64,000 nt of DNA from Candidatus Poribacteria bacterium (lineage in GTDB: Bacteria; Poribacteria; WGA-4E; PCPOR2b). Under the pieces are notes generated by a model. That model was not told the origin of the DNA. It made no database searches and was given only the letters and a program-made list of their open reading frames with translations. The DNA is taken from NCBI GenBank assembly GCA_965218095.1, contig OZ244587.1, positions 3,360,001 to 3,424,000 of the forward strand, read 5' to 3'. Shown here one piece after another: positions 6,323 to 63,677 of this stretch. Position numbers and translations under genes: made by a program. The number at the start of each line of letters is the position of its first letter. Within the stretch, counting starts at the first letter, position 1.

Positions 6323-6325
6323 CAA

Positions 6326-8454: not shown

Positions 8455-8517
8455 TGTAGGAAAGGGAGAATAAACGGAGAAACAAGAAGGAGGACAACGT
8501 TTCACGTTTCACATCCG

Positions 8518-9510: not shown

Positions 9511-9585
9511 CGAATAAAGCACGAGGTTTAGCAAGCTGGTCCGTCAGGACCTCAACACTTATCAATCCAGTTTTACGTTTTGACT

Positions 9586-10758: not shown

Positions 10759-10796
10759 ATTTTTGAACAAATGCGCTTCTTACATTTAATATCTCA

Positions 10797-11612: not shown

Positions 11613-11616
11613 GCAG

Positions 11617-12939: not shown

Positions 12940-12945
12940 AAAGAT

Positions 12946-13785: not shown

Positions 13786-13793
13786 AAAACCTG

Positions 13794-14720: not shown

Positions 14721-14747
14721 ACGGTCAGGAGATTCGTTGGAGTCCAC

Positions 14748-15689: not shown

Positions 15690-15745
15690 AACGTAAAAAG
15701 ATCTTACGTTTTACGCATTACGTTTTACGCATTACGCATTACGTA
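15680..15745. repeat. Heptamer tandem repeats in inverted arrangement (GTGAAAC/GTAAAA ... TTTTACG/CATTACG)
   Basis: Direct reading. Related arrays occur near 3450, 19790, 21955, 23900, 24660, 37550, 39120 and 42225. Confidence 0.75.
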
Positions 15746-15756
15746 AAGCATGAATC

Positions 15757-17277
15757 ATGTCTGCCAAATGTGGTAAAGTCTACCTTGTTGGGGCAGGTCC
15801 GGGCGATCAGAAACTGATTACGCTCAAAGGGATTGAATGCCTCCAACGTGCGGATGTCGTAATCTATGACCTGCTTGTCAACGTCAAACTTCTTGAACAT
15901 TGCCCGTCGCAGACCGAAAAGATCTACGGGGGGAAGATGCCGGGCGAGCAGAAAGAACGTCAAGTCGAGCTCAACGCTCTGATGATTCAGTACGCGAAAG
16001 CTGGAAAAACGGTAGTCCGGCTGAAAGGCGGCGATCCATTCGTCTTCGGGCGTGGCGGCGAGGAGGCGTTGGCGCTTTCAGAAGCGGGGATTGAATTCGA
16101 GATTGTTCCCGGCATCACTGCTGCGATTGCAGCGCCGGCGTATGCAGGCATCCCCATCACGCACCGGGGATACGCCTCGTCTGTCGCGTTTGTCACGGGA
16201 CACTCGGCGTCGCTCGCCCCCGATTCACCGATTGGCTGGGAATGGTTGGCGACGGCGGTTGATACGCTCGTGGTCTACATGGGCGTCGGACATCTTCGCC
16301 AGATTGCAGAACGCTTAATCGCGCATGGGCGTCAACCCGAAACGCCGGTGGCGCTTGTCCATTGGGGAACAACGCCGCAGCAGAAAACCCTTGAAGGGAC
16401 GCTCGTAGACATCGCCGAAAAAGCGGATGCGGCTGATTTTCGTAATCCGGCGGTGATCGTGGTTGGTGAAGTGAACGCTTTGCGCGACCGGCTGCGCTGG
16501 TTTGACCGAAAGCCCCTTTTCTGTCGCCGAATCATTGTCACTCGCGCACGGGCCCAAGCCAGCGACTTCGCCGAACACCTCGAATCTTGCGGCGCCGAAG
16601 TGATCCAATTCCCGACGATTGAAACCCGGCCGATTACCGACAACTCTACATTAGATGAAGCCATTGCTCGGCTTGCGACGTACAATTGGGTTATCTTTAC
16701 CAGCGTCAATGCGGTAGAGTATTTCTACCGCCGTTTGCGAGAAAACGGCAAAGATGCTCGATCACTTGGAAATGCTCAGATCTGCGCGGTCGGCCCAAAA
16801 ACTGTCACGACGTTAGAACAGATCGGGCTGTGTGCGGATTATGTTCCGTCGCAATCCCGCGGCGCAATTATCGCGGCTGAATTGGAAGATGTGGAAAGGC
16901 AAAAGATCCTGCTCCCTCGCGCCAAGATCGCCGTCGAAGATTTGCCTAATAGCTTGCGCGAAAGGGGCGCGATTGTTGACGCCATCCCGATTTATGATAC
17001 CGTCAGAGCGGATACGGAAAAATGTGAGGAAATCGAAGCCGCCTTGGTAGACGGGCGGATTGACATGGTGACATTTACAAGTTCATCAACCGTCACCAAC
17101 TTTCTGGAGATGTTCGATCCACACCCGCCTGCTGTCTTGCTCGACAAGGTTCACATTGCGGTCATTGGGCCATCAACCGCCGCAACTGCGAGAACGCATG
17201 GATTGACGGTAGACATGGTTGCGAAGAAGGCATCCGTAGAAGCGCTCGCGGAAGAAATTGTCAAGTTCTATACATGA
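15757..17277 (+). CDS. cobA: Uroporphyrinogen-III C-methyltransferase / uroporphyrinogen-III synthase fusion (CobA-HemD)
   Basis: VGAGPGD and VRLKGGDPFVFGRGGEE; HemD half has IIVTRA, FTSVNAV and FTSSSTV. Confidence 0.95.
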   Translation: MSAKCGKVYLVGAGPGDQKLITLKGIECLQRADVVIYDLLVNVKLLEHCPSQTEKIYGGKMPGEQKERQVELNALMIQYAKAGKTVVRLKGGDPFVFGRGGEEALALSEAGIEFEIVPGITAAIAAPAYAGIPITHRGYASSVAFVTGHSASLAPDSPIGWEWLATAVDTLVVYMGVGHLRQIAERLIAHGRQPETPVALVHWGTTPQQKTLEGTLVDIAEKADAADFRNPAVIVVGEVNALRDRLRWFDRKPLFCRRIIVTRARAQASDFAEHLESCGAEVIQFPTIETRPITDNSTLDEAIARLATYNWVIFTSVNAVEYFYRRLRENGKDARSLGNAQICAVGPKTVTTLEQIGLCADYVPSQSRGAIIAAELEDVERQKILLPRAKIAVEDLPNSLRERGAIVDAIPIYDTVRADTEKCEEIEAALVDGRIDMVTFTSSSTVTNFLEMFDPHPPAVLLDKVHIAVIGPSTAATARTHGLTVDMVAKKASVEALAEEIVKFYT

Positions 17278-17291
17278 AAGGAGAAGCAAAC

Positions 17292-17738
17292 ATGAATCGG
17301 AAAAGAGTCAAAATCATTATTGCGAGTCTTATCTTATCTGCTGCAATGACGTTCCTGTTCGTCGCAGGAGTGAAGAACACAAGTATGCGGCACTTCACGC
17401 CCAATGCGCTCATTGCACACGCGCAAGAGGTTGACAATAAGGGCATCCAAGTAGATGGGTTGATTTCGGAAGGTACAACCCAATGGGACCCAACAAAGTT
17501 TCAACTCACCTTTGCGGTGCGAGATCAAGAAGGCACAGCAAAAGTCAACGTCCTCTATGCAAATAGACTCAGACCTGACAACTTCAAAGATGGTGGAAAC
17601 GTCTTTGTTCAAGGGAAATATAACGCAGCGGAAAATCTCATCGTTGCCTCCAAACTCCAAACGAAGTGCGCGTCGAAATATGAGGCGGCTGAAAGGGCTA
17701 CAGCGCAAGCTAGTGGGGCAAGTGAACGCGATTATTAG
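17292..17738 (+). CDS. ccmE: Heme chaperone CcmE (CxxxY variant)
   Basis: N-terminal TM, PDNFKDG and KCASKY. Confidence 0.9.
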   Translation: MNRKRVKIIIASLILSAAMTFLFVAGVKNTSMRHFTPNALIAHAQEVDNKGIQVDGLISEGTTQWDPTKFQLTFAVRDQEGTAKVNVLYANRLRPDNFKDGGNVFVQGKYNAAENLIVASKLQTKCASKYEAAERATAQASGASERDY

Positions 17739-17774
17739 CCATCTCGAATGACAAACGGTAGGAATAGATAAACT

Positions 17775-19793
17775 ATGGCAGAATTGGGGCAAGCGGCAAT
17801 ATATCTTTCAGTTTTTTCCTGTCTGTGGGCAATGGCGATGCTCTGGATGGGATTGCGTCATAAAAACTACAACGCAGTCCTCAGCGGACGCAACAGCGTC
17901 GTCGGGACGTTCGCTTTAATAACGCTTGCAGCCGGCGCATTGATCTATAGCTTTGTGACAAACGACTTCTCAATGAAATACGTCGTCGAGGTATCGAGCT
18001 ATGATCAGCCACTGTTGTACAAGGTTACGGCGTTGTGGGGACGGATGTCCGGATCCCTGCTGTTCTGGCTTTGGCTCGTGACACTTTTCGGGGCACTGGT
18101 TGTATGGACAAACCGACGTGCAAGCGACCATCTCGCCGATTATGCACTCATTCCGATCTCAATCGTGCAGCTCTTTTTCATCATTCTCGTGACTGGTCTA
18201 GTCGAAGGCGTCTATAATCCACTGGAGCGGTTTCCGAATGGCATGGTTGCCCGAGACGGTGCCGGAATGAATCCGCTGCTGCAAACACCAAGCATGGTTT
18301 TTCATCCTCCATCGCTTTATGTTGGCTTCGTCAGCCTAACCGTGCCGTTTGCCTTTGCCATTGGTGCCCTTGCCGCTGGAAAGATGGGCAGCGAGTGGAT
18401 TATCCGATCTCGACGATGGATGATGGCATCCTGGCTGGTGTTGACACTCGGCATCATGCTCGGTGGAAATTGGGCGTATCGTGAGCTCGGGTGGGGCGGC
18501 TATTGGGCATGGGATCCGGTCGAAAACGCCTCGTTCATGCCGTGGCTGCTTGGGACCGCCTACCTCCATTCGGTGATAATCCAAGAGAAGCGGAATATGC
18601 TCAAACTCTGGAATATCATCCTGATCACCCTGGCGTTTGAGTTTACGCTGTTGGGAACCTTCATCACCCGTAGCGGGATTATCTCTTCTGTGCACGCATT
18701 CGCGCAATCAGACATTGGGCACTACTTCCTCAGCTTTATCATTCTCTCTGGGCTTGGTGTTGCCTTTCTTATCCATTATCGCTGGAATGACCTGAAAAGC
18801 CCCAATCGACTCGAATCTCTCCTTTCTCGTGAAAGCGCATTCCTCCTAAACAACTGGATGCTTGTGGGGCTGACACTGATTATTCTTTGGGGAACGCTGT
18901 GGCCAATTATCACGGAAGGGGTTACCGGAGCGAAAGTTGCCGTGCCGGAGTCATTCTTCAATCAGGTGGTCATTATTCCCGGACTGCTTCTCTTGTTGTT
19001 GACAGGGGTTGGGCCCATCACCTCATGGAAAAAGTTGACGCCGAGTAATTTCAGACGGATGTTCGCCAAACCGATTGTTTTCGGTGTAGTCGGTGGCATA
19101 CTCACATGGGTATATCTTGCTTTGAAAGGACACGCTGCACCGATCTACTCCGTGCTTTGCGTCTTCGCTAGCGTATTCGTCTTTGCAGCTATCTCTGACG
19201 AATTCTATCGCGGATCAAAATTGAGAGCCAAACGGGGTGAAACTTCCTTCCTTGATGGACTCATTCGGCTCATTCAACGCAACAAACGTCGATACGGCGG
19301 CTACATCGTCCATATCGGTATCGTGATTGTATACATTGGAATTCTGGGGTCTAAAGGCTATTTCCTGTTGGAATCGAAGGGGCTACGACTTGAGGAATCA
19401 ATGGAGGTCGGCAAATACACACTCACGATGCAGGATGCGTTTCAGGAGGAACACCCCAATTTCTCGCTCGGTGGGGTTATCTTAGCTGTTGAAAGGGAGG
19501 GGAAGTCGATAGGGACGATGCGTCCGGCACGTGGATTCTACCACAAAGCGGGACAGGGGGAACAGGATACAATCGAGTCAGCGATACGCCATTTCGGATT
19601 AAACGACCTCTATATTGCATTAGGGCCCCTCCCTGAAAACGTGCCTGCCTATGTGCAATCGGGCGGAATCGTTTCTGTTCAAGTTTACCATAACCCGCTT
19701 GTTAATGTTGTCTGGCTTGGCGTTGCCGTCATGATGATTGGTGGGCTTGTCGCTCTCCTTGAGAAAAGTGAAGTGAATAAAAATGAAGCGTGA
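17775..19793 (+). CDS. ccmF: Heme lyase CcmF
   Basis: GMNPLLQ, HPP, WAYRELGWGGYWAWDPVENAS and SVHAF motifs. Confidence 0.96.
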   Translation: MAELGQAAIYLSVFSCLWAMAMLWMGLRHKNYNAVLSGRNSVVGTFALITLAAGALIYSFVTNDFSMKYVVEVSSYDQPLLYKVTALWGRMSGSLLFWLWLVTLFGALVVWTNRRASDHLADYALIPISIVQLFFIILVTGLVEGVYNPLERFPNGMVARDGAGMNPLLQTPSMVFHPPSLYVGFVSLTVPFAFAIGALAAGKMGSEWIIRSRRWMMASWLVLTLGIMLGGNWAYRELGWGGYWAWDPVENASFMPWLLGTAYLHSVIIQEKRNMLKLWNIILITLAFEFTLLGTFITRSGIISSVHAFAQSDIGHYFLSFIILSGLGVAFLIHYRWNDLKSPNRLESLLSRESAFLLNNWMLVGLTLIILWGTLWPIITEGVTGAKVAVPESFFNQVVIIPGLLLLLLTGVGPITSWKKLTPSNFRRMFAKPIVFGVVGGILTWVYLALKGHAAPIYSVLCVFASVFVFAAISDEFYRGSKLRAKRGETSFLDGLIRLIQRNKRRYGGYIVHIGIVIVYIGILGSKGYFLLESKGLRLEESMEVGKYTLTMQDAFQEEHPNFSLGGVILAVEREGKSIGTMRPARGFYHKAGQGEQDTIESAIRHFGLNDLYIALGPLPENVPAYVQSGGIVSVQVYHNPLVNVVWLGVAVMMIGGLVALLEKSEVNKNEA

Positions 19794-19806
19794 AATGTAA
19801 AACGTA

Positions 19807-20364
19807 ATGCGTAAAATGATTCGTCGATTTGCGAATTCACGCAGAAGGGTGATTCCATTGAAAAGCCTCTACACAATTCTCTTGGTCTTATTGCTCATCA
19901 GTTTCCCAATCTTAGTTACATACGCCCAAGAGCAGGGCATCACAACGCCTCCATCGCTCGAATCAAAGTTAGAGGAACTAACGACAAGTGTATACTGTCA
20001 CTGCGGCTGCACGCGAGAGATTATTCAACAATGTGTCTGTGGAACTGCCCAACAGATTGAAAGCGAATTTCGCAATCGCCTCATCGCCGGATGGACAGTT
20101 GAACAGATTCGAGATAACTATATTGCAACGCATGGCACACAGTATTCCGCGCTCATGCCCGTCGAAGGGTTTAATATCGTCGCTTATGCTATGCCTGCCG
20201 TTATCATCGTGCTGCTCGGCGTTATCGTCTTTCTTGTGCTTAGGTCAAAGTGCAGAGCGGAGTTGGCGGAGCCGCCCGTTTCAACAGAGCCACAGCCGTC
20301 AGCATCGGCAGATCAATACGAACAAATTGAGGAAGAACTTGAGCGTTACAAGCAGCGAAGGTAG
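19807..20364 (+). CDS. ccmH: Cytochrome c biogenesis protein CcmH/CcmL-like (start uncertain)
   Basis: Signal peptide, CHCGC...CVCG, C-terminal TM helix; follows ccmF. Confidence 0.7.
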   Translation: MRKMIRRFANSRRRVIPLKSLYTILLVLLLISFPILVTYAQEQGITTPPSLESKLEELTTSVYCHCGCTREIIQQCVCGTAQQIESEFRNRLIAGWTVEQIRDNYIATHGTQYSALMPVEGFNIVAYAMPAVIIVLLGVIVFLVLRSKCRAELAEPPVSTEPQPSASADQYEQIEEELERYKQRR

Positions 20365-21906: not shown

Positions 21907-23211
21907 ATGCACAACAACCGGAAAGCCGGAAAACCAGAAAACAAAATTTTATTACGTTTCACGTTTTACGTTTTACGCTTTACGCTTACCCTTTTAATCT
22001 GTCTTCCTTCCGCTTTCGGACAAGGTGAGGCTGGCAAAATCGAAGGGCAAGTTATTGACAAGCAGAAGGGGCTACCGCTTACACAACAGCGAATCCTCCT
22101 ACAGATCCGCTGGGAAGGCGAAGATGTCCAGCAACGTGAGACGGTAACAGACAACAGTGGGTCTTATACCTTCGATAATCTCTCAACGGCTTTCGATGTG
22201 CACTATGTGATTTCAACCACTTACGAAGGGGAGGAATATGTCGAAAAAGACCTTGTCTTGTCAGAGTGGGTATCAGAAATCAAGGCCAATATTGAGATTG
22301 GTGGCTTTACCGATGACCCATCGCAGGTGAAGATTCGGCAGCATACGATTGTCATTTCACCGCCGCCGGCAGATCACGCCCCAGATCAAGCCGTTTCGGT
22401 GATGGAGATTATTCAGGTCGAAAATACCAGTGATCTGGCGTTTAAAACATCAATAGGGGTTCAACCGGCAGGTGTGCATTTCAACTTGCCAAATGGTTAC
22501 GAGAACCTTCAGCTTGATCAGAGCTCCAAACAAGATCTCGGGGCAACTGCAAACCGGTTAATCGCCAACCAACCGTTAGCTCCGGGAACGCATAACGTCG
22601 GATATTCTTATTTGATACACATTGTTGATTCGGATTTAGCCCTCTCCCGAAAGCTGACATTTGATACAGACCAACTCTATGTATTCATTGCGCAAGGGAT
22701 GCCATTAAAGCCACAATCACGAATCTTAGGAGCTGGCCGTCAGGAAGACATCCACGGCATGGTATACACCATTTATGCAACCGACCCTGCCAAGCCGCTA
22801 TCAACGGGGCAAACTGTAGACCTAAGCATTAAGGTTGCCTCCGTTGCTCCGGCTCCTCAAGGTGGTACGGCTGGACAACCGTCTGACCCAAAGATGATTG
22901 CGCTGATCGCAATCGCCGCGGCACTTGCAGGCGGTTTTTTGGTTGCGGCGATTTTCAAAATCCGAACCCCCACGCCGAAGCCGTCTGACGGCTCCCAAAG
23001 ATCTCAAGCGGCTCCCGATGCCAGTTGGCTCCGTAAGCTGGATGCCGCCGACATTGAGCGGACGCGGATTGCCCGGCTTGAGATGGTTACTCGTTTGGAG
23101 GAATTGTACGAGAAGCACGAAATCTCCGAGCGGGTTTATAAGCGGTTGCGGAAAGAGCAGGCAGATCGGCTCGCGGCTGTCCTTGAGCGAATGAATAGAA
23201 AAGGAGAATGA
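21907..23211 (+). CDS. ccm-associated secreted/membrane protein with carboxypeptidase-regulatory-like domain
   Basis: GKIEGQVID...TDNSGSYTFDNL beta-sandwich, late TM helix, helical tail. Confidence 0.65.
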   Translation: MHNNRKAGKPENKILLRFTFYVLRFTLTLLICLPSAFGQGEAGKIEGQVIDKQKGLPLTQQRILLQIRWEGEDVQQRETVTDNSGSYTFDNLSTAFDVHYVISTTYEGEEYVEKDLVLSEWVSEIKANIEIGGFTDDPSQVKIRQHTIVISPPPADHAPDQAVSVMEIIQVENTSDLAFKTSIGVQPAGVHFNLPNGYENLQLDQSSKQDLGATANRLIANQPLAPGTHNVGYSYLIHIVDSDLALSRKLTFDTDQLYVFIAQGMPLKPQSRILGAGRQEDIHGMVYTIYATDPAKPLSTGQTVDLSIKVASVAPAPQGGTAGQPSDPKMIALIAIAAALAGGFLVAAIFKIRTPTPKPSDGSQRSQAAPDASWLRKLDAADIERTRIARLEMVTRLEELYEKHEISERVYKRLRKEQADRLAAVLERMNRKGE

Positions 23212-23862: not shown

Positions 23863-23953
23863 CCGTAATTTCCGAATAACGTAAGATGGGAGGTTCTTCT
23901 TACGCACTACGCACTACGCACTACGCATTACGTTTTACCAATAAGAGATTCTG

Positions 23954-39045: not shown

Positions 39046-39130
39046 TTTTAAGTGGTGAATTGTCTGCTGTATTTCTCCAGTTACCGCACCGGATAGGAAA
39101 TGATGAAATGGGGAGATGACGCATCACGTT

Positions 39131-39397
39131 TCACGCATCACGTTTCACGTAAAGGTAAGTCTTTATCACCTCATTTGTCCGTGTATGCCGATCGGCCAAA
39201 AACCAGAGGCAGCAGCCGGACTCGTGATACCACCACTCCGTTTGCATGCCCATGGTGTTATTACGCAGATAGAGGTAGTCTGCTAACTCCGCATCGCTAG
39301 GAGCCGTGAGTTCTTTGGGACGCGGGTTGTATTCTCCGCCAAAACGGAACTCGCTGACGTTTCGAGACCCACAGTTGGGACAGGTTAAAAGTAGCAT
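39131..39397 (-). CDS. soxD: Sarcosine oxidase delta subunit
   Basis: CPNCGSR..SEF, EWWYH..GC and RHTRTNE motifs. Confidence 0.92.
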   Translation of the reverse strand: MLLLTCPNCGSRNVSEFRFGGEYNPRPKELTAPSDAELADYLYLRNNTMGMQTEWWYHESGCCLWFLADRHTRTNEVIKTYLYVKRDA

Positions 39398-51330: not shown

Positions 51331-52314
51331 ATGAACCCACTTCAAAACTTCCGCCTCGCACGCTACCGTGTGATTTTAACAGCGCTTTCGACGATTTTGA
51401 TGCCGCCCTACGCCGGCTCCACATACCGTGGCGGATTCGGTCACGCATTCCGCAAGATGGTTTGTACCCAGGGTCCAATCGACTGTGGAGATTGCACGCT
51501 CAAAGCGGTCTGCCCATACCCATATATCTTCGAGACCGCCCCATTCGAGGGCGCGCAGCAGCTACGAACCTACGGCGACGTGCCGCGCCCGTTTGTCATT
51601 GACCCACTCGGAACACGCGGCGAATACCGGCGGGGCGAATCATTTGCGTTTCGTCTCACCCTCATTGGTCGCGCCATCGACTATCTCCCCTATTTTCTGG
51701 TCAGCTTCCGCGAGTTAGGAGAGATTGGTATCGGCAAAAGACGCGGGCGTTTCCAGTTGACCCAAGTCATCGCGGATGAGGAAGGTTTTATCTTTCCACA
51801 ATCCTGTAAATCCTTGAATCCTGATGGGGAATCGATCTACACATCGGAGACGCAAACGGTACACAATCTCGATAACGCCCTGAGTTTCGACGACATTCAG
51901 CGGGAAGCGGAATCTTTGCCAACCGACTCATTGACCGTGCACCTACTCACCCCAACACGCATCACGCACGAGGGGGAGTTGACGGACAAACTCCCGTTCC
52001 ACATCTTCTGGCGACGGTTGATTGGACGCATCTCCGCGTTGGCGTATTTCCACTGTGGCGAATCGCTGAAACTGGATTTTAAGGGGCTCATCGCGCAGGC
52101 GGAGACGGTCGAGACGGTTCAGAGCGGGTTACGTTGGCACGATTGGACGCGCTATTCGTCGCGTCAGAATCAGAAGATGCAACTCGGCGGGTTGGTCGGG
52201 AGTGTGACGTATGCAGGGGATTTGGGGGTGTTCACCCCGTTTATGGCGTTGGGTGCGTTTCTGCATGTGGGCAAAAACGCGACCTTTGGACTTGGAAAGT
52301 ATCAAATTCGATGA
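51331..52314 (+). CDS. cas6: CRISPR-associated endoribonuclease Cas6
   Basis: GSTYRGGFG, CxxC..CPY.YIFE, PRPFVI and C-terminal G-rich loop HVGKNATFGLG. Confidence 0.92.
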   Translation: MNPLQNFRLARYRVILTALSTILMPPYAGSTYRGGFGHAFRKMVCTQGPIDCGDCTLKAVCPYPYIFETAPFEGAQQLRTYGDVPRPFVIDPLGTRGEYRRGESFAFRLTLIGRAIDYLPYFLVSFRELGEIGIGKRRGRFQLTQVIADEEGFIFPQSCKSLNPDGESIYTSETQTVHNLDNALSFDDIQREAESLPTDSLTVHLLTPTRITHEGELTDKLPFHIFWRRLIGRISALAYFHCGESLKLDFKGLIAQAETVETVQSGLRWHDWTRYSSRQNQKMQLGGLVGSVTYAGDLGVFTPFMALGAFLHVGKNATFGLGKYQIR

Positions 52315-52503: not shown

Positions 52504-53475
52504 ATGTCTACCAAGATGGAAAGAATTTACTGGATAGATCGGCAAATTCGATCGGAAAGGTATCCAAACGTCCATAAAGTCAAGGAACAGTTTGAACTCC
52601 GCAGCACTCGGATCGTCTACGAAGATAGGAAATTTATGATAAATTGCCTTCACGCGCCTATCAAATATTGCAGACGCAGAGAAGGATGGTACTATACGGA
52701 TGCCACCTATTTCCTCCCCGCGATAATGCTGACAAGGGAAGAAATCACAGCTTTTTTTCTGGGGGAAGAGTTATTCAGGCGGTATCTAGGCACCCCCTTT
52801 GAAACGCCTCTTCGGCTTGCACTTGATAAGATAAAACAACACCTACCGGAGCATGTAGGCTACGACGCGCAAAAGGAAACCTCTGCGTTTGCCTTCACAG
52901 GTGGCGGCAGAGCGATGGTCGATCCAGAATTATTGCTCGAACTCAATGACGCTATCCTTTCAAAACGCTCGATTGAGATAGAATATTATTCAGCGAGTCG
53001 CGGTCAAACAAACACGCGAACCGTTAATCCATACCACCTCCATAACATCCATGGCGATTGGTATCTGATCGCCTATTGTCACACACGGCGCGAACCGCGC
53101 GACTTCCTCACCAACCGCATCAAAGCGCGTAAACGCCTACCATCTACCTTCCAAGTTGCCTCGGATTTTTCCCTCAATGCGTACTTAGAGACCGGATTTC
53201 TCGCAGAACGGGCGACAGAGCCTGATAATATCGTCATCAAATTTGATGAGTATCAGGCACGTTGGATAAGAGAGCGTCAGTGGCACTCCAGTCAACAAAT
53301 TGAGGAGTTACCATCCGGTGGACTGATATTGCGACTGAGAGTCGGTGGATTGGGTGAAGTGAAGCGGTGGGTCATGGGCTATGGACCACATGCGGAAGTT
53401 CTCGAACCTGAAAGGCTCCGTCGTGAAATCAAGGAAGAAGTAAAAAAAATGAAAGAAATCTACCGTAAAAAGTAA
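52504..53475 (+). CDS. wHTH-WYL-WCX transcriptional regulator
   Basis: N-terminal HTH; RTVNPYHL...WYLIAYC; WHSSQ and WVMGYG..AEVLEP. Confidence 0.93.
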   Translation: MSTKMERIYWIDRQIRSERYPNVHKVKEQFELRSTRIVYEDRKFMINCLHAPIKYCRRREGWYYTDATYFLPAIMLTREEITAFFLGEELFRRYLGTPFETPLRLALDKIKQHLPEHVGYDAQKETSAFAFTGGGRAMVDPELLLELNDAILSKRSIEIEYYSASRGQTNTRTVNPYHLHNIHGDWYLIAYCHTRREPRDFLTNRIKARKRLPSTFQVASDFSLNAYLETGFLAERATEPDNIVIKFDEYQARWIRERQWHSSQQIEELPSGGLILRLRVGGLGEVKRWVMGYGPHAEVLEPERLRREIKEEVKKMKEIYRKK

Positions 53476-53801: not shown

Positions 53802-56582
53802 ATGGATTATCAAGCATTCAGAACAAGGGCTGTCAAATTCATGCTCAACCGCGATTGGAAGAAAAAAACCGCAAAGCGGAGAAATTTTGAGCAAAGCTTA
53901 TTTGACCACACAGTTATTGAAATTGACGCTCTTATTACATTGTTGCCACTGCTTCAGCACACCTTCTCACCTCCACTAACAGAGCCCGAGGAACAAGTGC
54001 TCCTAACCAGTGTTCTCGCACATGATGTTGGTAAAGAACTTGATGAGTGGCAGGAATACGTGATGGGGAGGCGTGACTTCCTCTCCGATGTAAATCGAGA
54101 GTTAGCCGAGGAAGTGGTCCCCGAGTTGGCGAGTCAATTCGAGTTCAGCGGTGTTGAGGAGATACTATCGTCGGTCCTTTTACACATGCGTTATGAAAGG
54201 ACACCAGTGAATGTAACAAGTCGCCTTTTGTTTGGTCAGCATACAAATCCACGTTGGAAAACATTGGCAGACATTGTTGATGCAGTGGATAATCTGTGCT
54301 CAGCAAAAGGTCTTTTTGCCGGATTACAATGCGTGGCAGAGAAAACCTGTATATCTAACCATCTCCACACTGTCTACCATCTCGTGCAAACACGAGGCGT
54401 CTCAACAACGCTGTTACATCGCGCCGCAATTGATGCCTTCATCGAATGTGGCTGGAGTCCGTTGTTACACTATAGCAACGGCACAATTTACGTAGCAAGC
54501 AGCGCGACCCAACCGCTAGAGCCGGGCGTTGACGAAATTCAAGACCAAATGGTGGAGCGTCTCAGAGAAGCGATGCCTGATAAAATAGCGAAATTAATCG
54601 TTGGCAATCCAACAAGTAGCATAATGCCAAAACCTAATCTATTTGACTACCGCGATTTGGAAACATGTTTATCCGTTGCCGCGAGCCGCATCACCCGCAA
54701 AAGCTTTTTCAACAGGCCTGAATCAAAGCGGGTTGAGGTCATTGGCAAATATTTGCTTCTTTTAGAATGCTTAATTGAAAATGAACCTAAATCTGCTTTC
54801 ACTGAATCTAACAAGAAATGGAAAATGAACGACCGCCCAGACATAGATGATGAAACTCTTGCATTGCAAATGTCGAGGATAGCCACAGCACAACCTGAAA
54901 TGTGTGTCTTCAAATTCTTCAAAGCAGTTTTGGCAGATGGTCTTCTCGGTAAACAGGTCACACCGGAAGCGGAAGAGATCTATGCCGATTTCGCAGAAGG
55001 TGGCGGGAAAAAGAAAGTACCGAAAGTAACCCCACAAAGCGTCGCCCGAACGGAATACGACGCCGTTTTTGGTGAAGGGGCTTACGCCGAGTTGCAGTCT
55101 ACAGCAAACTTAATGCCTGCTCGTGACATGGCGTTTACCGTTGACCGATTTTGGTCACTGGATGGCTCACAATTTGGACTTGATGTACCGACAGTTGAAA
55201 TTCTGCTTGACGACACCAAACGTGAGGAGATTCTCATTGATACCCTTGTAGATATTGCGAACAAAGTTTACACTGCAATACCCGTTGAAAACCGACCGGC
55301 ACGTGCAACGCCGGAAGATTTTGCGCGATGTTTCATGCCAGATCTGATTCATCCATCGCCCAAGCTGAATCTCGACGAACTGATTGCACAGCAGATGCAA
55401 GCATACGGGCAAACAAAAGCAAATGCTCGGAAGGAGAAAGGTTTGCATCTTTGCCCAATCTGCAATCAAACGTTTGATGGAGGCACAAAGGCGAAAGCTG
55501 ATTTCGTTGGAAACCCTGAGGGGCATACAAATCGCGGCGTTTCGCACGGCGGGGCCGGACAGATTGTCATCTGCGATGCCTGTAAGTATGAGAGGTTTCT
55601 CCAACAACTGTTGCTCGGTTCGCAGGTCGCCGATATTCTCGTACTGTTCCCGCGCATGAACATCGGTCACAGTAGTGGGGAAGCGTTACGCAAAAAGGCG
55701 ATTCAGATTTGGGACAAGGCTTCAATCCGAATGACTGGAGATAATCCGAACCCGGACCAACACATTACACTCAGCCTAACTAATCTAATCGCAAGAAATA
55801 TGAGCAAGAACAATTACGATGTCTATCGGCTGACGCACAATGAAATCGTTGAGTTGCTAACTTATGAGTCCACGGAAGATACAAAGAAAAAGCACAGAAA
55901 AATTTTGGATAAAGAACTCAAAGAATACTTCTCAACGGATGAACTAAGTGTCGAGGATCTGAATGAAGAGTGGGCAACTAATTTTCAAACGGTGGAAGAC
56001 GCGGTTCAGGCATTAACTGAAGGTAGAATTCAAGATGATGAAGCCCGCCGAATCCAAGCGAAGGCTTTTAATTTGATTCCACAATTTCACATAGCTTGCC
56101 AAACTCCGCATATGATTCTTGTTCCGACAACCAACCTTTTGGATTCCAAGAAATCTGCTTTTCAAAAGAAAGTTGGAAAAAATTGGGAATCAGACACAAA
56201 CGCAGGAATTCGGGAACTGTATTTGACGCTCATACTCGGACTTTCACTCGACTGCTCGGTTGCTGTTGTGAAAGCAGGTGAGGTTATTACATTCGAGGAT
56301 AGCGAAGGTGTTGCGAAAGTTCCGTCCGCACCTGCCCTTCGCGATCTGGTTGGTGCGGATTGGGTCTCAATAGAGGCAGCAGAGAAATGGCTTGACGCTA
56401 TCGGTGCGGCAGCACTGCTTGCCAATTCAACGGAATATCCCGAACGTTACAACCTCTACCAAATTCTCAAAAGTCCAACGTTGGGGCATGTACTTCGCCG
56501 AATTGAGCAGAAAAGCGACAACGGCCAAGCGTACATGTACCATTTCCATTTACTTGAACAAATGAAGGAGGTTCTCAGATGA
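53802..56582 (+). CDS. cas10d: Type I-D large subunit Cas10d with N-terminal HD nuclease
   Basis: QSLFDH...LAHDVGKE...H...D HD domain; CPIC...CDAC Zn finger; precedes cas7d and cas5d. Confidence 0.82.
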   Translation: MDYQAFRTRAVKFMLNRDWKKKTAKRRNFEQSLFDHTVIEIDALITLLPLLQHTFSPPLTEPEEQVLLTSVLAHDVGKELDEWQEYVMGRRDFLSDVNRELAEEVVPELASQFEFSGVEEILSSVLLHMRYERTPVNVTSRLLFGQHTNPRWKTLADIVDAVDNLCSAKGLFAGLQCVAEKTCISNHLHTVYHLVQTRGVSTTLLHRAAIDAFIECGWSPLLHYSNGTIYVASSATQPLEPGVDEIQDQMVERLREAMPDKIAKLIVGNPTSSIMPKPNLFDYRDLETCLSVAASRITRKSFFNRPESKRVEVIGKYLLLLECLIENEPKSAFTESNKKWKMNDRPDIDDETLALQMSRIATAQPEMCVFKFFKAVLADGLLGKQVTPEAEEIYADFAEGGGKKKVPKVTPQSVARTEYDAVFGEGAYAELQSTANLMPARDMAFTVDRFWSLDGSQFGLDVPTVEILLDDTKREEILIDTLVDIANKVYTAIPVENRPARATPEDFARCFMPDLIHPSPKLNLDELIAQQMQAYGQTKANARKEKGLHLCPICNQTFDGGTKAKADFVGNPEGHTNRGVSHGGAGQIVICDACKYERFLQQLLLGSQVADILVLFPRMNIGHSSGEALRKKAIQIWDKASIRMTGDNPNPDQHITLSLTNLIARNMSKNNYDVYRLTHNEIVELLTYESTEDTKKKHRKILDKELKEYFSTDELSVEDLNEEWATNFQTVEDAVQALTEGRIQDDEARRIQAKAFNLIPQFHIACQTPHMILVPTTNLLDSKKSAFQKKVGKNWESDTNAGIRELYLTLILGLSLDCSVAVVKAGEVITFEDSEGVAKVPSAPALRDLVGADWVSIEAAEKWLDAIGAAALLANSTEYPERYNLYQILKSPTLGHVLRRIEQKSDNGQAYMYHFHLLEQMKEVLR

Positions 56583-57217
56583 GACAGTTAATCGTAACCA
56601 AGGGGGAGCGGTTTGATATCGAAACCGTTCCCCCCAAAATTGAGCGCATTGCCGATGCCTTTGACCGGTATCTTGATGAGTATAACCCCAAAACAAGGCG
56701 AACTATGCACGGCGTTATGGGACCTGTGCAAAGGATTCTTGACGGAGCGCGTGTCCGAAAAGAGGACGCCAAAACATTGGTGGGAAGGGCGGTACGCGCT
56801 CATGAAATGAACGAGAATAACCGCGGGTATTTATCGCCATCCGCGCTTGAGGCTCTTGAGACGGGGACGCAGGATTTATTGGTATTGTGTAACGAAGTGC
56901 CTATCACAACCGTCTCCAAGGTTACTGAGCGCGTCCGTTACACCGTCTACTACATGCGAAGAAAAAAGGATATTGAGTGGTTGGAGCAGACACGCAAGAC
57001 GTTTATCGAGTTTCTGCGAAAACGTTACGCCGATGAAACTACGCTCACTACAGCGTGGGGAGAGAAATCATTGAAATTCGATGACGTTCGTTTTCCCTCT
57101 CGGAAAAATCAGGCGTTTAAGCGGGCAAACGACGTAAAGAAGGGAGATATTACCAGTTTCTGGGAATCTACCGATACAGAACCCATCATCGAAGAAGAGG
57201 AGGACGACAATGAGTAG
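56579..57217 (+). CDS. Separately encoded small subunit (Cas11d-like) with C-terminal extension
   Basis: Own RBS AAGGAGG, ATGA overlap with cas10d, helical sequence, located between cas10d and cas7d. Confidence 0.65.
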   Translation: MRQLIVTKGERFDIETVPPKIERIADAFDRYLDEYNPKTRRTMHGVMGPVQRILDGARVRKEDAKTLVGRAVRAHEMNENNRGYLSPSALEALETGTQDLLVLCNEVPITTVSKVTERVRYTVYYMRRKKDIEWLEQTRKTFIEFLRKRYADETTLTTAWGEKSLKFDDVRFPSRKNQAFKRANDVKKGDITSFWESTDTEPIIEEEEDDNE

Positions 57218-58145
57218 CTTAGACCTTTTGAAACCCTTCACCATAGACAAACCGCAACCGCTGATCGGTGCGAAGACAGTTCAAATCCTACTGATGCGCG
57301 AAATACTGGATTACACGGTTCTACGCACAGAAGAAACACGCGAACTCAACACAGTCGCTACGCCCCTCTCACTTAACAATGGTGACAATACCATCATGCG
57401 AGTTGCATTTCTGGCAACGAAGCAGAAAGCGGCTGAATCACGACAGCTAGAGCAACTCCTGCGAACAGGAACGTCTGAAGCAGATTTGTCAGTAACAGAA
57501 TGCTATCTGAAAGACAAGCTCTGCCTCGAATGTCCTCGCTGTACCTTATTTGGCGCGACAAACACAGAATCTGGACGTGAAAATCGAGCCAACATCAAGC
57601 ACCGCATCGAGTATTCGACAGCATTTTCCTTGCTCCCATTTGAGGACATTGAATCGTCAACGACGTTCAACGCAATTAACGACCTCAACCAAACGACCGG
57701 ACAAGCATTAGGTAGCCGCTACGCTGTCGTACCTGCGACCGTATTTCCAAGCATCGTCAGCTTGCGGAGCGCGACGCTCACCGAGGTAATTTTGACCATC
57801 AAAACGTTGTTGGCAAGCAAGAGCTACGGTGCAGAATCCCGAATCGGCGGAGATGTGCGTAACTCTGTTTTCGGTATCATCGGTGGTTGGGAGGAAGTCA
57901 TCACGCCCCTTGAACTCACACTTGAACTCTATGACCAACGCGACAACTTGGTCGGCGATACCTTCAAAACGATTGCCAAGAAGTATAAACCGTTGGCAGG
58001 CAATCCTGACCACGTGACCATTTTCTCGCCTGATGAGGTGGATGCAACCGTCGGAGCCGCTGCGAACACACCGCTCGATAAATCGTTATTGACGACAGCT
58101 TATAACGATGCGAAAACCTACGTCAAAGCCCAGCAGAAAAAATGA
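57210..58145 (+). CDS. cas7: Type I-D Cas7 (Csc2)
   Basis: LMRE..DY..LRTE, KQKAAE.R, CLECPRCTLFG, RIEYSTAFS and YGAESR motifs. Confidence 0.88.
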   Translation: MSSLDLLKPFTIDKPQPLIGAKTVQILLMREILDYTVLRTEETRELNTVATPLSLNNGDNTIMRVAFLATKQKAAESRQLEQLLRTGTSEADLSVTECYLKDKLCLECPRCTLFGATNTESGRENRANIKHRIEYSTAFSLLPFEDIESSTTFNAINDLNQTTGQALGSRYAVVPATVFPSIVSLRSATLTEVILTIKTLLASKSYGAESRIGGDVRNSVFGIIGGWEEVITPLELTLELYDQRDNLVGDTFKTIAKKYKPLAGNPDHVTIFSPDEVDATVGAAANTPLDKSLLTTAYNDAKTYVKAQQKK

Positions 58146-58151
58146 GCGTTC

Positions 58152-58187
58152 AAGAAACCGAGTTTTTTCGGAAAAACTCGGTTTCTT
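58152..58187. repeat. REP-like palindrome between cas7 and cas5
   Basis: AAGAAACCGAGTTTTTTCGGAAAAACTCGGTTTCTT. Confidence 0.85.
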
Positions 58188-58216
58188 CATACACATCAGC
58201 CAAGCGAGGTGACAAC

Positions 58217-58969
58217 ATGGCAAACGCTATTCGGCTTTATGAACATGGCGTGCGCGTATTTGCAGGACGACTGTATAACCACGATTACCTCTGGTTCTCA
58301 TCCAACGAAATCAGCAAAGTCTCAACAACCCAACCCATCCTGCACAACTACGCACTCTGTTATGCAATTTCGCAACGCTCCTACGGTGTCTATCTCGGTA
58401 CAACACCAAAATATGTTGAAGATCCGGATGGCGAATTCAATGCGATGCCGCTCTACGCAACGCCCGCCCACGCTGACTCCGAGCACGTATCGCGCACGAC
58501 TATCACCTTCAATGCCGTTGATTCACGCACATTGACAACAGGTGATAGCAAATCAATGAATACACCGAATTTGGGAAAGCGAGTCTACATCAATCCGGCG
58601 TGGGAATCAACGGAGGTAGAACGTCCAGAAAAAGGCTATCAATTTTACGTTTTCACATTCGACAACTATCGCCCACCAGGGGTAACACGGCTCGGTAAGA
58701 AAGGTGCTTCAATGCGCATTCGGTGGGATGAGGTACACCAACCTGTCGCAATCCACCGTGAAGGTAAACAAAGCCCAACACACCCAATTAACCCTTTGGA
58801 TGTCAACGGACACCTCGTCAGCTATGATCCGGTGATGATTCCCCCACATCTGTTATTTCGGACAGCAACCCTCGCCGCAGATTGGTGGGTGTTCTTCAGT
58901 CCCGGCAGAGCGCGGCATACCATACACGTCCCCAAACGTGTTTTGAACCGAATCGGAGGTGTATCATGA
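58217..58969 (+). CDS. cas5: Type I-D Cas5 (Csc1)
   Basis: HDYLWFSS.E, LHNYALCYA, YATPA, RLGKK and PINPLD motifs; RBS GAGGTG. Confidence 0.88.
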   Translation: MANAIRLYEHGVRVFAGRLYNHDYLWFSSNEISKVSTTQPILHNYALCYAISQRSYGVYLGTTPKYVEDPDGEFNAMPLYATPAHADSEHVSRTTITFNAVDSRTLTTGDSKSMNTPNLGKRVYINPAWESTEVERPEKGYQFYVFTFDNYRPPGVTRLGKKGASMRIRWDEVHQPVAIHREGKQSPTHPINPLDVNGHLVSYDPVMIPPHLLFRTATLAADWWVFFSPGRARHTIHVPKRVLNRIGGVS

Positions 58970-60993
58970 GAATACAAGGCTATTCTTACAAACAGGTTGT
59001 TGTCGAAGATGTGAAAACCCGCCTTTATCCACATCAAGCTGCCATGTACAACGAGTGGCCCAACCACACCGGATTTCTACTCGTGACAAAAACGGGAAGT
59101 GGCAAAACACGGGCGACAGCGTTACCCGTACTGAAAAATCACGAATCTGCTGTTTTCGCCTACCCGACAAACGCGCTGATTCAAGACCAATCGCGGGCGA
59201 TTCAGCAATTGATGGACGATGAATATATCGCCTACCGAGAATTGACACCGCAGAATGCAACCGACAAGTTTGGTAAAGAAGAATATCAACTTGTCCAAAT
59301 TAACGCGCAGACGCTGGTAGATTTTGCAAAGGCGTGGGGAATGGGTGAAAAGCAAAAAGGGGCTGCACTTATAAGGCTAATTCAACAGGACAAGCAAAAA
59401 ATTGTATTGATTAACCCCGACATTCTTTATCTTCTGTACTCGTTGCGCTACCGTGGCAGCCAAGAGGCTTTATCATATTTGCAAGCATACAAGACAATTG
59501 TATTTGACGAGTTTCATCTCTACAACGGCGTTGAATTAGCCCACGCGCTTTTCCTTATCTTTTTGGCACAACGTATGGGGGCGTTTCAACGAGTTGTGTT
59601 GCTCTCTGCCACTCCGAATGAAGATGTCAAAACCTATCTTGATCGACTGCTCAACCCGCTTGTCATTGATGCGGATGTAAAAGTTCCGCAGCCCGTTTGT
59701 GGCAAGCGAGCGGTCGCATATGATGTAGAGCTCAATGCTTTGCCTTTGCCCGTTACTAAGGATGTCGTCGAAACGGCACAATCGAAGATCCTTGAACTTC
59801 AGAGCGAATTATACCGACTCCAAACAGAAAACTGGGAAGCGAACAAAGCGGGAGATTATGTGCCTTGTGTTGTTATCCTCAATTCGGTCGTCAATGCCAT
59901 CGCACTGGAGGATACCCTTGTTGAAGCGGGGATATCCCGCACAGAAATCGCACCGATTCGCGGGCTTTCAGCGCGGAGTAGTCGAGACGTGAGAGGCAAA
60001 ACGCTTGTCATCGGCACAGCGGCAATCGAAGTCGGAATTGATTTCAAAACCGATTATCTGATTTTCGAGGCGGGCAATCAAGCGTCGTTCATGCAGCGAT
60101 TTGGACGGCTTGGGAGGCATAGTGCCGGACAGGCATTCCTACTCGCTGACCCGCGTGAATATCAAGCGGTCAAATCTCTTGGGGATGACATCTCCCGCGA
60201 TGATCTAGAGCAGGGCATCAAAACTATCTATCCCGGACAGGATGCGAAAGAGTGGTTTGTTGATACGCAGTGTGGTGCGTTTACGGTGCTCGCCCAAGCT
60301 GAGAACTTCCGCAGTCGAATTATCGACGATTGGCCTGCTGATGAATCAATGAAAACTGAACTTGAGGCGTGGCTAGACGCCGCTTTGACAGACTATGCAA
60401 CACATATGAATCTATCTCAGATGAAACGTGCTCGATTGAAACTTCGACGCAAGCCAACGTGGTTTGAGCATTACAAAGCGTTGGACTCATTTCGCACATC
60501 GTTACCGAGTCAGGAGGTTTGGGATGTTCGGGAAAAAGAGAACGAGCGCGATTGGTCTTACGATGCCGACGTCAAGATGTTGCTCACTCGTGCCGAGCGG
60601 TTGTGGTATAATGAAAGACATGACCGGCTCTACGTCAAAGGCTACGGAAAGTATCGCCAAGTCTGGTTTGCCAAAACCTTCGACGATGAACGTGAAGATG
60701 ACTGTTGTGGCATACTTCGCACAACTGCCGATTATTCAAGGGAAGATATGCAGTTCATGCAGGAAGGTCATTTGACATCAGTTTCGCATGTGATGGCAAA
60801 ACAGAAATACAAAGAGCGTGTTACCGGCCATGTATTTGTTCTCGCACCCATAGATTTAATCCCAAAATTGGACTGGCGACTGGCGTGGTTTAGATGCGGA
60901 TCGCGTGGGAAATACATCATTGCATTTGATGGAGACGCCCTTCTACTGAAAGAAATCTATGATCGGGTACTGAAGGAAAGAAACAGAAAATGA
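58966..60993 (+). CDS. cas3: Type I-D Cas3' helicase (no HD domain)
   Basis: TGSGKT, YPTNAL, DEFH, SAT, AIEVGIDF and QRFGRLGRH motifs. Confidence 0.92.
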   Translation: MRIQGYSYKQVVVEDVKTRLYPHQAAMYNEWPNHTGFLLVTKTGSGKTRATALPVLKNHESAVFAYPTNALIQDQSRAIQQLMDDEYIAYRELTPQNATDKFGKEEYQLVQINAQTLVDFAKAWGMGEKQKGAALIRLIQQDKQKIVLINPDILYLLYSLRYRGSQEALSYLQAYKTIVFDEFHLYNGVELAHALFLIFLAQRMGAFQRVVLLSATPNEDVKTYLDRLLNPLVIDADVKVPQPVCGKRAVAYDVELNALPLPVTKDVVETAQSKILELQSELYRLQTENWEANKAGDYVPCVVILNSVVNAIALEDTLVEAGISRTEIAPIRGLSARSSRDVRGKTLVIGTAAIEVGIDFKTDYLIFEAGNQASFMQRFGRLGRHSAGQAFLLADPREYQAVKSLGDDISRDDLEQGIKTIYPGQDAKEWFVDTQCGAFTVLAQAENFRSRIIDDWPADESMKTELEAWLDAALTDYATHMNLSQMKRARLKLRRKPTWFEHYKALDSFRTSLPSQEVWDVREKENERDWSYDADVKMLLTRAERLWYNERHDRLYVKGYGKYRQVWFAKTFDDEREDDCCGILRTTADYSREDMQFMQEGHLTSVSHVMAKQKYKERVTGHVFVLAPIDLIPKLDWRLAWFRCGSRGKYIIAFDGDALLLKEIYDRVLKERNRK

Positions 60994-61086: not shown

Positions 61087-62175
61087 ATGCAATCACTCAT
61101 CGTTGATGATTTTGGCGCATACCTCGGCAAACGCTCCGAGCGCGTCAGCGTCCGATACCGAGACAAAGAACGAGAAAAAGAAGAACACGCCCTCATGGAC
61201 CTCGACCACATCGTCATCGCCTCGCGGGGTGTCAGTATGTCCTCAGACCTCATCGAAGCGTGTACCGAGCGCGGCATCGAAATCTCGTTTCTCAGTTTCA
61301 ACGGCAAACCGTATGCGAAACTCAACAGCCCGTCACTGACAGCGACCGTAATTTCAAGACGCGAACAACTCGCCGCATATAACGATGAACGCGGCGTCGA
61401 GATTACCAAACGGTTCGCCACAGGCAAGTTACGGAATCAGATTAACCTCGTCCGCTATTTCGGCAAATACCGCAAGAAACGTGCGCCGAAGAAGTACGCG
61501 GAGCTAGTCGAGCGGCTCACAAAAATTGAGGTGATTATTGATGAACTCCAGTGCGTGGGGATGGGTGCAACCGATGCGCCGTCAATTGATGGTGCACGCG
61601 GCACGTTACTCAACCTCGAAGGACGCGCCGGCGCTCTCTATTGGGAATGCGTCCAACGGCTGCTGCCCGCCGGACGTTTCACAACCCGAAACCATCAAGG
61701 CGCGGTTGATGACGTGAACGCGCTGCTCAACTACGGCTACGGGATACTCTACTCACAGGTCTGGAGCGCACTCACGTTAGCTGGACTCGAACCATTTGCG
61801 GGGTTCCTACACGTTGACCGCCCCGGCAAACCATCGTTGGTGTTGGATTTTATCGAGGAGTTCCGTCAGCCGATCGTTGACCGGGTTGTGTTTGCAATGA
61901 TCAACAAGAGATTCAAGGTCGAGTGGGAAGCGCCGGATAGCGACGCCGCCAAAGCCGCGCGCCAGTCCGCAACGACCGAAATTCCGACACAGCGCCGTTT
62001 AAGCAGAGACACCCGACGCGCATTTGCCGACCGGCTACTGGCACGCCTTCAGGAGACCGAGCGATTCGAGCGAAAGGAACAGAAACTCTGCAACATTATC
62101 CAACTCCAAGCCCGCCATCTGGCGATGTTCCTGCGCCGTGAACGGGATTATCAGTCGTTGGTTGCCCGCTGGTAA
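61087..62175 (+). CDS. cas1: CRISPR-associated integrase Cas1
   Basis: EGRAGALYW, NALLNYGYGIL, GFLH and LVLDFIEEFR motifs. Confidence 0.95.
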   Translation: MQSLIVDDFGAYLGKRSERVSVRYRDKEREKEEHALMDLDHIVIASRGVSMSSDLIEACTERGIEISFLSFNGKPYAKLNSPSLTATVISRREQLAAYNDERGVEITKRFATGKLRNQINLVRYFGKYRKKRAPKKYAELVERLTKIEVIIDELQCVGMGATDAPSIDGARGTLLNLEGRAGALYWECVQRLLPAGRFTTRNHQGAVDDVNALLNYGYGILYSQVWSALTLAGLEPFAGFLHVDRPGKPSLVLDFIEEFRQPIVDRVVFAMINKRFKVEWEAPDSDAAKAARQSATTEIPTQRRLSRDTRRAFADRLLARLQETERFERKEQKLCNIIQLQARHLAMFLRRERDYQSLVARW

Positions 62176-62208
62176 GAAACCGAGTTTTTTCCTCAAAACT
62201 CGGTTTCT
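62175..62208. repeat. REP palindrome, left flank of RAYT
   Basis: AGAAACCGAGTTTT / AAAACTCGGTTTCT; overlaps the cas1 stop codon. Confidence 0.85.
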
Positions 62209-62221
62209 GGAGGCGTCACAG

Positions 62222-62788
62222 ATGCGAAACATCCAATTTAGAGCCGGATATTATTACCATTTATACAACCGTGGTGTGGATCGTCAACCCATCTTCTTCG
62301 ATGAGGAAAACTGGGGATACTTTATAAAACGTTTGCGTCATTACTGCATACCTGATCTGATTGAAATTGTCGCTTATTGTCTCATGCCGAATCATTACCA
62401 CATTCTCGCTTATCTGAAAGATGACAACCTGAGCACGAAAATCATGCAACCATTCACCGTGTCCTACACCAAAGCTGTGAATCGGCAACAAGACCGCGTG
62501 GGCCCAGTTTTCCAAGGCACCTTTAAGGCAAAGTTAGTAGACAAAAACGAGTATCTTCTACATCTTTCACGCTATCTTCACCTGAATCCAGTATTGGCGG
62601 GGATAGTTGGTAATCCTGCAAGCTGGACATTTTCTAGCTATCAGGACTACGTTGGCTTGCGTAACGGAACTTTATCCAAACCTGATATCGTACTGTCCCA
62701 GTTTCCTTCGCGCCAGGCTTATGCTAAATTTGTCCGTGCGTATTCTGAGACCGACAGGGAGTTAATTGAGCATTTGATGTTAGATTAG
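62222..62788 (+). mobile_element. REP-associated tyrosine transposase (RAYT, Y1 HUH)
   Basis: YYHLYNRG...IF, AYCLMPNHYH (HUH), G.VFQG.F, YLHLNPV and W.FSSY motifs; flanked by REPs. Confidence 0.88.
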
Positions 62789-62856: not shown

Positions 62857-63108
62857 ATGCACACCTACGTCATCTACGACATTGTCAAAGACCGCATCCG
62901 CAAAAAAATCGCGGATGTCTGCCTCGATTACGGCTTAAAACGCATCCAATACAGCGCGTTCCTAGGCGACATCAATACCACACGACAGCGGGCGTTAGAG
63001 GAGAAACTCACGGAACAACTCGGCAGAGCGGAAGGGAAGATCGAAATCCTCAGCGTGTGCGCGAAGGACTTCGACAAGCGAACCGTTATTGAGGAGGCTG
63101 GAGAATGA
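62857..63108 (+). CDS. cas2: CRISPR-associated Cas2
   Basis: VIYDI..DRIR and GLKRIQYSAF motifs. Confidence 0.95.
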   Translation: MHTYVIYDIVKDRIRKKIADVCLDYGLKRIQYSAFLGDINTTRQRALEEKLTEQLGRAEGKIEILSVCAKDFDKRTVIEEAGE

Positions 63109-63677
63109 ACATACGAGTCAGTGACATCAAGCAGTACTTCTACTGCCCAAGGGTGGTCTACCACACCTACTTGACACCCGTCCACCGGCCCGTCACGCAT
63201 CCGATGCAACTGGGCGCCGTCGAACACGAGGTGCTCAGTGTCTTGGAGCGGCGTCGAACCCTCTCCCGCTATGGGCTTGACGCTGGAAGCCGTAAATTCC
63301 ATCTCTCACTGCACGCCGAGTCTCTCGGATTGACAGGCGTACTCGACCTGCTGATTGAGACGGAAGATGGCGCGTTTCCGGTCGAGTTTAAGTCCACGAC
63401 TCAACGGCTGAACCTGAACGCGAAATACCAATTGACGGCGTATGCGATGCTGGTGGAGGCGTGTCTCGGTCATTCAGTTTCTCAAGGGTTTATCTATCGG
63501 ATTCCGACACAGCGCATCACAGCGGTTCCGATTTCAGAGACACTTCGTCGGAAGACCCACCACGCCATCGAGCAGATACGGGGTATGCTTTCAGACGAGC
63601 GGCTGCCATCGCCGACGCCACAGCGAGGAAAATGTGTCGAGTGCGAATTTCGTCGATTCTGTGGCGATGTGTTGTGA
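63105..63677 (+). CDS. cas4: CRISPR-associated Cas4
   Basis: QYFYCPR, G.LD, PVEFK, QLTAY and CVECEFRRFC motifs. Confidence 0.95.
   Translation: MNIRVSDIKQYFYCPRVVYHTYLTPVHRPVTHPMQLGAVEHEVLSVLERRRTLSRYGLDAGSRKFHLSLHAESLGLTGVLDLLIETEDGAFPVEFKSTTQRLNLNAKYQLTAYAMLVEACLGHSVSQGFIYRIPTQRITAVPISETLRRKTHHAIEQIRGMLSDERLPSPTPQRGKCVECEFRRFCGDVL

Follow-up and report, generated by a model that had tools for sequence, protein, structure and literature searches.

Is the small subunit of a type I-D CRISPR-Cas effector necessarily encoded within the gene of the large subunit? Translation of the small Cascade subunit Cas11d from an internal start within cas10d is stated to be conserved across I-D lineages in the accessible parts of a 2023 review (PMC10212523) and of the preprint by McBride et al. 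(10.1101/2020.04.18.045682), and this and the other literature cited below is quoted from such parts. The locus described here raises that question. It lies in a 64,000-nucleotide (nt) stretch of a Candidatus Poribacteria genome (G000:C1:3360001-3424000, forward strand; hereafter the window), in which cas10d is followed by a separate open reading frame (ORF) for a protein of 212 amino acids (aa), ORF212. We find that the split between the two genes is real and conserved. A curated profile and the predicted fold support ORF212 as a Cas11d-type small subunit, and it is very probable that we are dealing with a complete locus of the I-D lineage, on a deep branch, whose small Cascade subunit has its own gene.

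The junction between cas10d and cas11d

The operon was annotated by Pfam, NCBIfam and PADLOC (PADLOC-DB v2.0.0) scans together with an ORF list and the raw sequence. Three features make up the junction:

53802..56582, + strand: cas10d, 926-aa large subunit; HD nuclease domain at the N terminus, zinc finger of four Cys, no C-terminal Cas11 domain
56565..56571, + strand: Shine-Dalgarno (SD) sequence AAGGAGG, within the 3' end of cas10d, 7 nt ahead of the cas11d ATG (read directly)
56579..57217, + strand: cas11d (ORF212), stand-alone small subunit, 212 aa; Cas11 bundle at residues ~14-139, acidic tail at 141-212

The first-pass annotation had described a 926-aa Cas10d with an HD domain and a zinc finger that stops at 56582, and a separate 212-aa ORF that begins at 56579 in another frame with its own AAGGAGG and ATGA coupling; both descriptions can be read directly from the sequence. 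The TGA of cas10d (56580-56582) and the ATG of cas11d (56579-56581) overlap in a 4-nt ATGA, and cas11d runs in the -1 frame relative to cas10d. In place of the in-frame internal start within cas10d that is a feature of I-D systems, there is thus a separate ORF in another frame.

Such a split could be an artefact, with one base wrong in the sequencing or assembly of a cas10d-cas11d gene that is normally fused, and one homologue, the metagenomic protein P0304, is fused. The related loci argue strongly against an error. Scanning one genome for each species gave 12 of them at 52-86% identity (nine titled Candidatus Poribacteria, one Fimbriimonadia and the remainder Chloroflexota-lineage/Chloroflexaceae), from independent assemblies in three phyla. 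The order cas10d-cas11d-cas7d-cas5d-cas3' is kept in 12 of 12, as is the overlap at the junction (ATGA in 11, GTGA in one), preceded by a GGAG-containing SD whose GGAG core stands at the same position every time. Because the same junction recurs in all these assemblies, the split is no assembly slip.

Protein searches point the same way. A word-indexed search returned 135 relatives of ORF212, and the 120 listed are 205-218 aa long (search range 116-371 aa), which gives more than 100 stand-alone homologues of ~210 aa. The corresponding search with Cas10d returned 268 relatives, and none of the 120 listed exceeds 948 aa, although lengths of up to 1621 aa were eligible. An unrestricted search with a family profile, cut at E <= 0.001, gave 106 proteins, and 103 of these have no more than 247 aa; two longer matches (764 and 315 aa) are weak and cover ~50 residues each, and P0304 is the sole fused Cas10d-Cas11d. 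The proposal that homologous loci share the split is therefore borne out. Contigs of four public runs over 55800-57400 have no reported insertion or deletion, and none extends across the junction by 31 letters in both directions; they are short Logan contigs of related strains and add little. Given the recurrence in independent assemblies, an error has a negligible probability and is refuted for practical purposes. Within the window's phylum, 7 of 151 sampled genomes carry the gene, the window's own genome counted. One of the related loci, in a Chloroflexia metagenome-assembled genome (L014:5316-12297), shows cas10d, cas11d and cas3' interrupted by several frame breaks, through either decay or an assembly rich in errors.

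P0304 (1119 aa) contains a whole Cas11d part at residues 908-1117, in frame and with the Met retained at the joint, and its Cas10d part is 26% identical to the Cas10d of the window. It forms a cluster by itself, seen on two contigs, and a search for its DNA in metagenome contigs did not find it. A true fusion and an error are alike compatible with a one-member cluster.

The fused relative also bears on a second explanation, in which a programmed -1 frameshift at the overlap would yield a Cas10d-Cas11d fusion plus free Cas11d and so recreate the canonical product pair. The in-frame joint of P0304, distant as this protein is, would fit such an origin, and so would the SD-like AAGGAGG upstream of the stop codon; in prfB and dnaX, SD-like elements can promote frameshifting. 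Against this, the final codons of cas10d are GTT CTC AGA TGA, with no slippery heptamer at the junction, and the bases immediately before A/GTGA vary among the 12 loci, so that the SD and the overlap alone are conserved, which is the signature of translational coupling. For want of a slippery site and with variable bases before the overlap, frameshifting is very unlikely and we rejected it. Instead, the ATGA overlap and the strong, well-spaced SD make it probable that cas11d is translated both by termination-reinitiation after cas10d and by independent initiation.

In one metatranscriptome run, contigs of 90-99% likeness cover 56438-56823 and 57196-57400; because DNA may be present in such libraries, they do not demonstrate transcription. 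The same run holds a joint, in a single contig, that skips 56823-57196; it is unexplained and is given no weight.

ORF212 as a small subunit and its fit to Cas10d

ORF212 matches the PADLOC profile PDLC01194 ('Cas11d; CAS-I-D; effector_SS') at E 1e-65, with residues 1-208 on positions 1-202 of 202, and no model of Pfam or NCBIfam matches it. Its predicted structure has the helical-bundle fold of Cas11d (PDB 7SBA chain J), and the three top-ranking entries of its structural search are without exception Cas11d of type I-D or the Cas10d Cas11 domain, with a lead of 3 Z units over the row that follows. The first-pass suggestion that the protein be compared with Cas11d by profile and by structure thus gave a match on both counts. 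The first 140 residues are basic, with an isoelectric point (pI) of 9.4, and fit the role in R-loop stabilisation that is ascribed to Cas11d small subunits (2023 review, PMC10212523). The last 72 residues are acidic (pI 4.65) and have no counterpart in the 146-aa canonical subunit.

The large subunit matches PADLOC PDLC01192 over its full length with 1074.9 bits, and reaches 33.7 bits against TIGR03174, below the equivalog cut-off of 60 and over residues 30-256 only. It bears the Cas3''-type HD nuclease domain that characterizes Cas10d of subtype I-D. The alignment of the Cas10d model with canonical Cas10d ends at a boundary, residue 827, where the canonical Cas11 domain begins, whereas the structural matches of ORF212 cover the ranges 828-969 and 719-844; the ranges aligned by the Cas10d model are their complements. 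Since the alignment ends where the Cas11 domain starts, the modelled large subunit appears to have no built-in small-subunit domain, as the first-pass annotation had surmised. The models support the view that cas10d and cas11d share out the canonical protein between them, with the cut at the start of Cas11d.

A complex model of Cas10d residues 300-926 with ORF212 scored 0.71, against 0.00 for the best of three controls. Of 80 solved complexes 58 attain this mark, as do 2 of 110 mismatched pairs, a yardstick that is rough here because we supplied the alignments ourselves. At least 88% of contacts are shared between runs, and the partner has a predicted local distance difference test (pLDDT) value of at least 78. 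The predicted interface joins Cas10d 892-918 to ORF212 114-136 and includes residues that are invariant, namely T893, G895 and R899 in Cas10d and K114, R118, Y124, Y125, R128, K129 and E136 in ORF212.

Several points weigh against a Cas11d-type subunit. ORF212 exceeds Cas11d by 66 residues, and its tail has no assigned fold. At the level of sequence, phmmer of ORF212 against PDB chains gave nothing relevant, hhalign of its profile against the canonical Cas10d of the same genome gave a probability of 0.6%, and the family profile, searched against 1.84 billion representatives, reached no canonical Cas10d at E <= 0.001; hhalign against the profile of the variant's own Cas10d likewise found no sequence link. 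The link between ORF212 and canonical Cas11d is therefore at the level of the predicted fold only. The structural ranges, moreover, mark only where each alignment begins and ends, and the search used the Cas10d model of 926 residues as a whole. Because a similar complex has already been solved, the complex score may mirror likeness to 7SBA. Finally, the searchable literature gave no expression, assembly or interference data for the lineage.

ORF212 might alternatively be an accessory protein that binds Cas10d, such as an adaptor, a regulator or a Cas3'-recruitment factor, with a generic helical bundle and no part in the minor filament. We consider this improbable: the three best structural matches are all small-subunit folds of I-D and stand clear of the rest, the Cas10d model stops where a Cas11 domain would start, the gene occupies the slot between the large subunit and cas7, the curated profile calls the protein an I-D small subunit, and the basic N-terminal part suits R-loop stabilisation.

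With ORF212 read as Cas11d, the complex might work as follows. Cas10d would supply the HD nuclease, the zinc finger on the protospacer-adjacent-motif (PAM) side and the foot of the complex, and would end where a canonical Cas11 domain would follow. Re-initiation together with fresh initiation would supply at least one Cas11d for each Cas10d. The first Cas11d would dock non-covalently on the last helices of Cas10d through its most conserved basic and aromatic helix, as the complex model suggests. By analogy with Synechocystis, further copies would sit along the belly of the Cas7d filament and stabilise the R-loop, so that every belly subunit would be a free Cas11d. Cas3' would then be recruited, and the HD domain of Cas10d would cut the DNA.

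The operon, its array and its place among catalogued systems

The junction is embedded in a longer series of genes, all on the same strand:

51331..52314, + strand: cas6, CRISPR RNA endoribonuclease, upstream of the effector genes; PADLOC Cas6 PDLC01477, E 3.4e-107, full length
52504..53475, + strand: WYL-WCX transcription regulator of the CRISPR-associated type; Pfam WYL and WCX, PADLOC WYL PDLC01652, E 1e-39
57210..58145, + strand: cas7d (csc2), 8-nt overlap with cas11d; Pfam Csc2 E 1.6e-40, TIGR03157 97.3 bits (cut-off 38)
58142..58969, + strand: cas5d (csc1), 4-nt overlap with cas7d; TIGR03159 92.1 bits (cut-off 41.4)
58966..60993, + strand: cas3' helicase without an HD domain; TIGR03158 165.3 bits (cut-off 69.1), only Pfam matches DEAD, ResIII and Cas3-like_C_2
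61087..62175, + strand: cas1; Pfam Cas_Cas1 E 3.1e-71
62024..62788, + strand: IS200/REP-associated tyrosine transposase ORF (RAYT-like), between cas1 and cas2; library scans
62857..63108, + strand: cas2; Pfam CRISPR_Cas2 E 9.5e-16
63105..63677, + strand: cas4, after cas2; TIGR00372 123.4 bits (cut-off 65)

The gene order is thus cas6, WYL, cas10d, cas11d, cas7d, cas5d, cas3', cas1, transposase, cas2, cas4, which matches the first-pass account of a cas3' after cas5d, a cas6 detached upstream and a cas4 after cas2. The cas3' ORF is open from TTG 58882, but ATG 58966 is the more likely start, being preceded by GGAGG and overlapping the cas5d stop by 4 nt. Given that start, neighbouring genes from cas10d through cas3' overlap by 4 or 8 nt, which suggests a single translationally coupled effector operon. 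Csc2 (Cas7d), Csc1 (Cas5d) and a separate HD-less Cas3', all above their NCBIfam cut-offs, are hallmarks of subtype I-D, as are the adaptation genes cas1, cas2 and cas4 with a CRISPR array. No CRISPR array was found inside the window; the array starts at window coordinate 64073 (base 1073 of the adjoining region L002), 73 nt beyond the window end and near cas4, and ~119 copies of the 37-nt repeat GTTTCAACCTTTGCCCCGATGAAAAGGGGACTGAAAG at 71-76 nt spacing lie within 15 kb past the window. With an intact array just past the window and beside cas4, the locus is complete, and the ~119 repeats adjoining cas4 suggest a working system.

The 5' end of the RAYT-like transposase ORF runs into the 3' end of cas1, and its true start is probably later. 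A copy of the transposase, 89-92% identical, stands at the same spot in the related loci L005 and L009 and is not present in L003, L004 and L006. In L003, from a Poribacteria relative, ~2.2 kb (12441-14671) are inserted between cas3' and cas1, against 93 nt in the window. Elsewhere in the window, short tandem runs of related 7-nt units (TTACGCA, TTACGTT and TACGCAC; 14-nt ACGCATCACGTTTC) occur at four sites (15704-15744, 21952-21984, 23901-23932 and 39119-39149).

The first-pass annotation had implied that the I-D variant and its gene order were both new, and in neither respect is this supported. PADLOC-DB v2 (2023) already contains the Cas10d and Cas11d models that match here, and a family with curated profiles is not a new kind of system. 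The 2023 review (PMC10212523) reports that effector gene order, above all the positions of cas3' and cas6, varies among I-D groups. The locus belongs to a catalogued, already profiled and experimentally untouched lineage. A separate cas11d gene is not mentioned in the accessible parts of that review or of the McBride preprint (10.1101/2020.04.18.045682), nor discussed in those of the 2025 classification update (PMC12669027). Among the listed papers that use 'cas11d', no title or abstract on a stand-alone cas11d gene was found, and supplementary tables of I-D or classification papers may mention one.

What the lineage offers is a natural exception, in three bacterial phyla, to the conserved internal translation of Cas11d. 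It follows that Cas10d need not carry a fused Cas11 domain. The result is a naturally modular I-D effector, and for I-D editing in eukaryotic cells cas11d had to be provided as its own gene (2023 review, PMC10212523). As the first-pass annotation had proposed, a separate gene might also permit a different stoichiometry and let the small subunit evolve independently. The lineage also bears on how often, a single time or several times, large and small subunits became fused between type III and type I.

Comparison with known systems

The I-D Cascade of Synechocystis sp. PCC 6803 (PDB 7SBA/7SBB) has the composition Cas10d1:Cas7d7:Cas5d1:Cas11d2, and its minor filament consists of the C-terminal Cas11 domain of Cas10d and two free Cas11d (PMC9123187). 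The free subunit is made from an in-frame internal start, M830, of cas10d, and a complex without Cas11d shows no detectable double-stranded DNA binding (10.1101/2020.04.18.045682). The locus of the window shares with this system an HD-bearing Cas10d, Csc2/Cas7d, Csc1/Cas5d, a separate Cas3' helicase, 37-nt repeats and a subunit of the Cas11d fold, as well as the order large subunit, small subunit, cas7, cas5. It differs in that the Synechocystis Cas10d covalently carries one Cas11 domain, whereas here the small subunit is a separate gene in the -1 frame; in that this subunit, with its acidic tail, is 212 aa long, against 146 aa in Synechocystis; and in that cas3' follows cas5d instead of preceding cas10d, with cas6 upstream.

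Operons of types III-A and III-B have the order cas10, cas11 (csm2/cmr5), cas7, cas5. One might ask whether the lineage keeps an ancestral, type III-like set of separate cas10, cas11, cas7 and cas5 genes and is a living intermediate, canonical I-D having arisen by a later fusion of cas11d to cas10d that kept the start codon. We regard this origin as tentative and rather unlikely. Were it true, P0304 with its retained Met would show the fusion step, the minor filament would consist of free 25-kDa Cas11d only, and the acidic tails could alter subunit number or gate Cas3' recruitment. Type III systems have no Cas3', and the Cas7, Cas5 and Cas3' profiles place the locus in I-D; type III Cas10 combines a cyclase palm with a permuted HD domain (2023 review, PMC10212523).

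A further comparison lies in the same genome, which has a second, canonical I-D locus (L017, G000:C1:4766001-4786000, ~2741-20000) at ~4.773-4.786 Mb, ~1.36 Mb away. It likewise has WYL, cas3', cas10d, cas7d, cas5d, cas6 (cas6d), cas1, cas2, cas4 and an array of its own. There, Cas10d is encoded by one ORF of up to 1020 aa and scores 397.5 bits on TIGR03174 at positions 2-945, and no separate cas11d ORF lies between cas10d (ending at 12494) and cas7d (starting at 12481). The order is cas3'-cas10d-cas7d-cas5d-cas6, cas4 and cas1 are fused, and the 37-nt repeat is unrelated to that of the variant. Between the cas4-cas1 fusion and cas2 of this locus stand five tandem 78-nt units (17394-17783), each of which starts with the last 11 letters of its CRISPR repeat. 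With a canonical and a variant I-D system in one genome, each with its own Cas6 and repeat, the two loci form a convenient natural pair for comparison.

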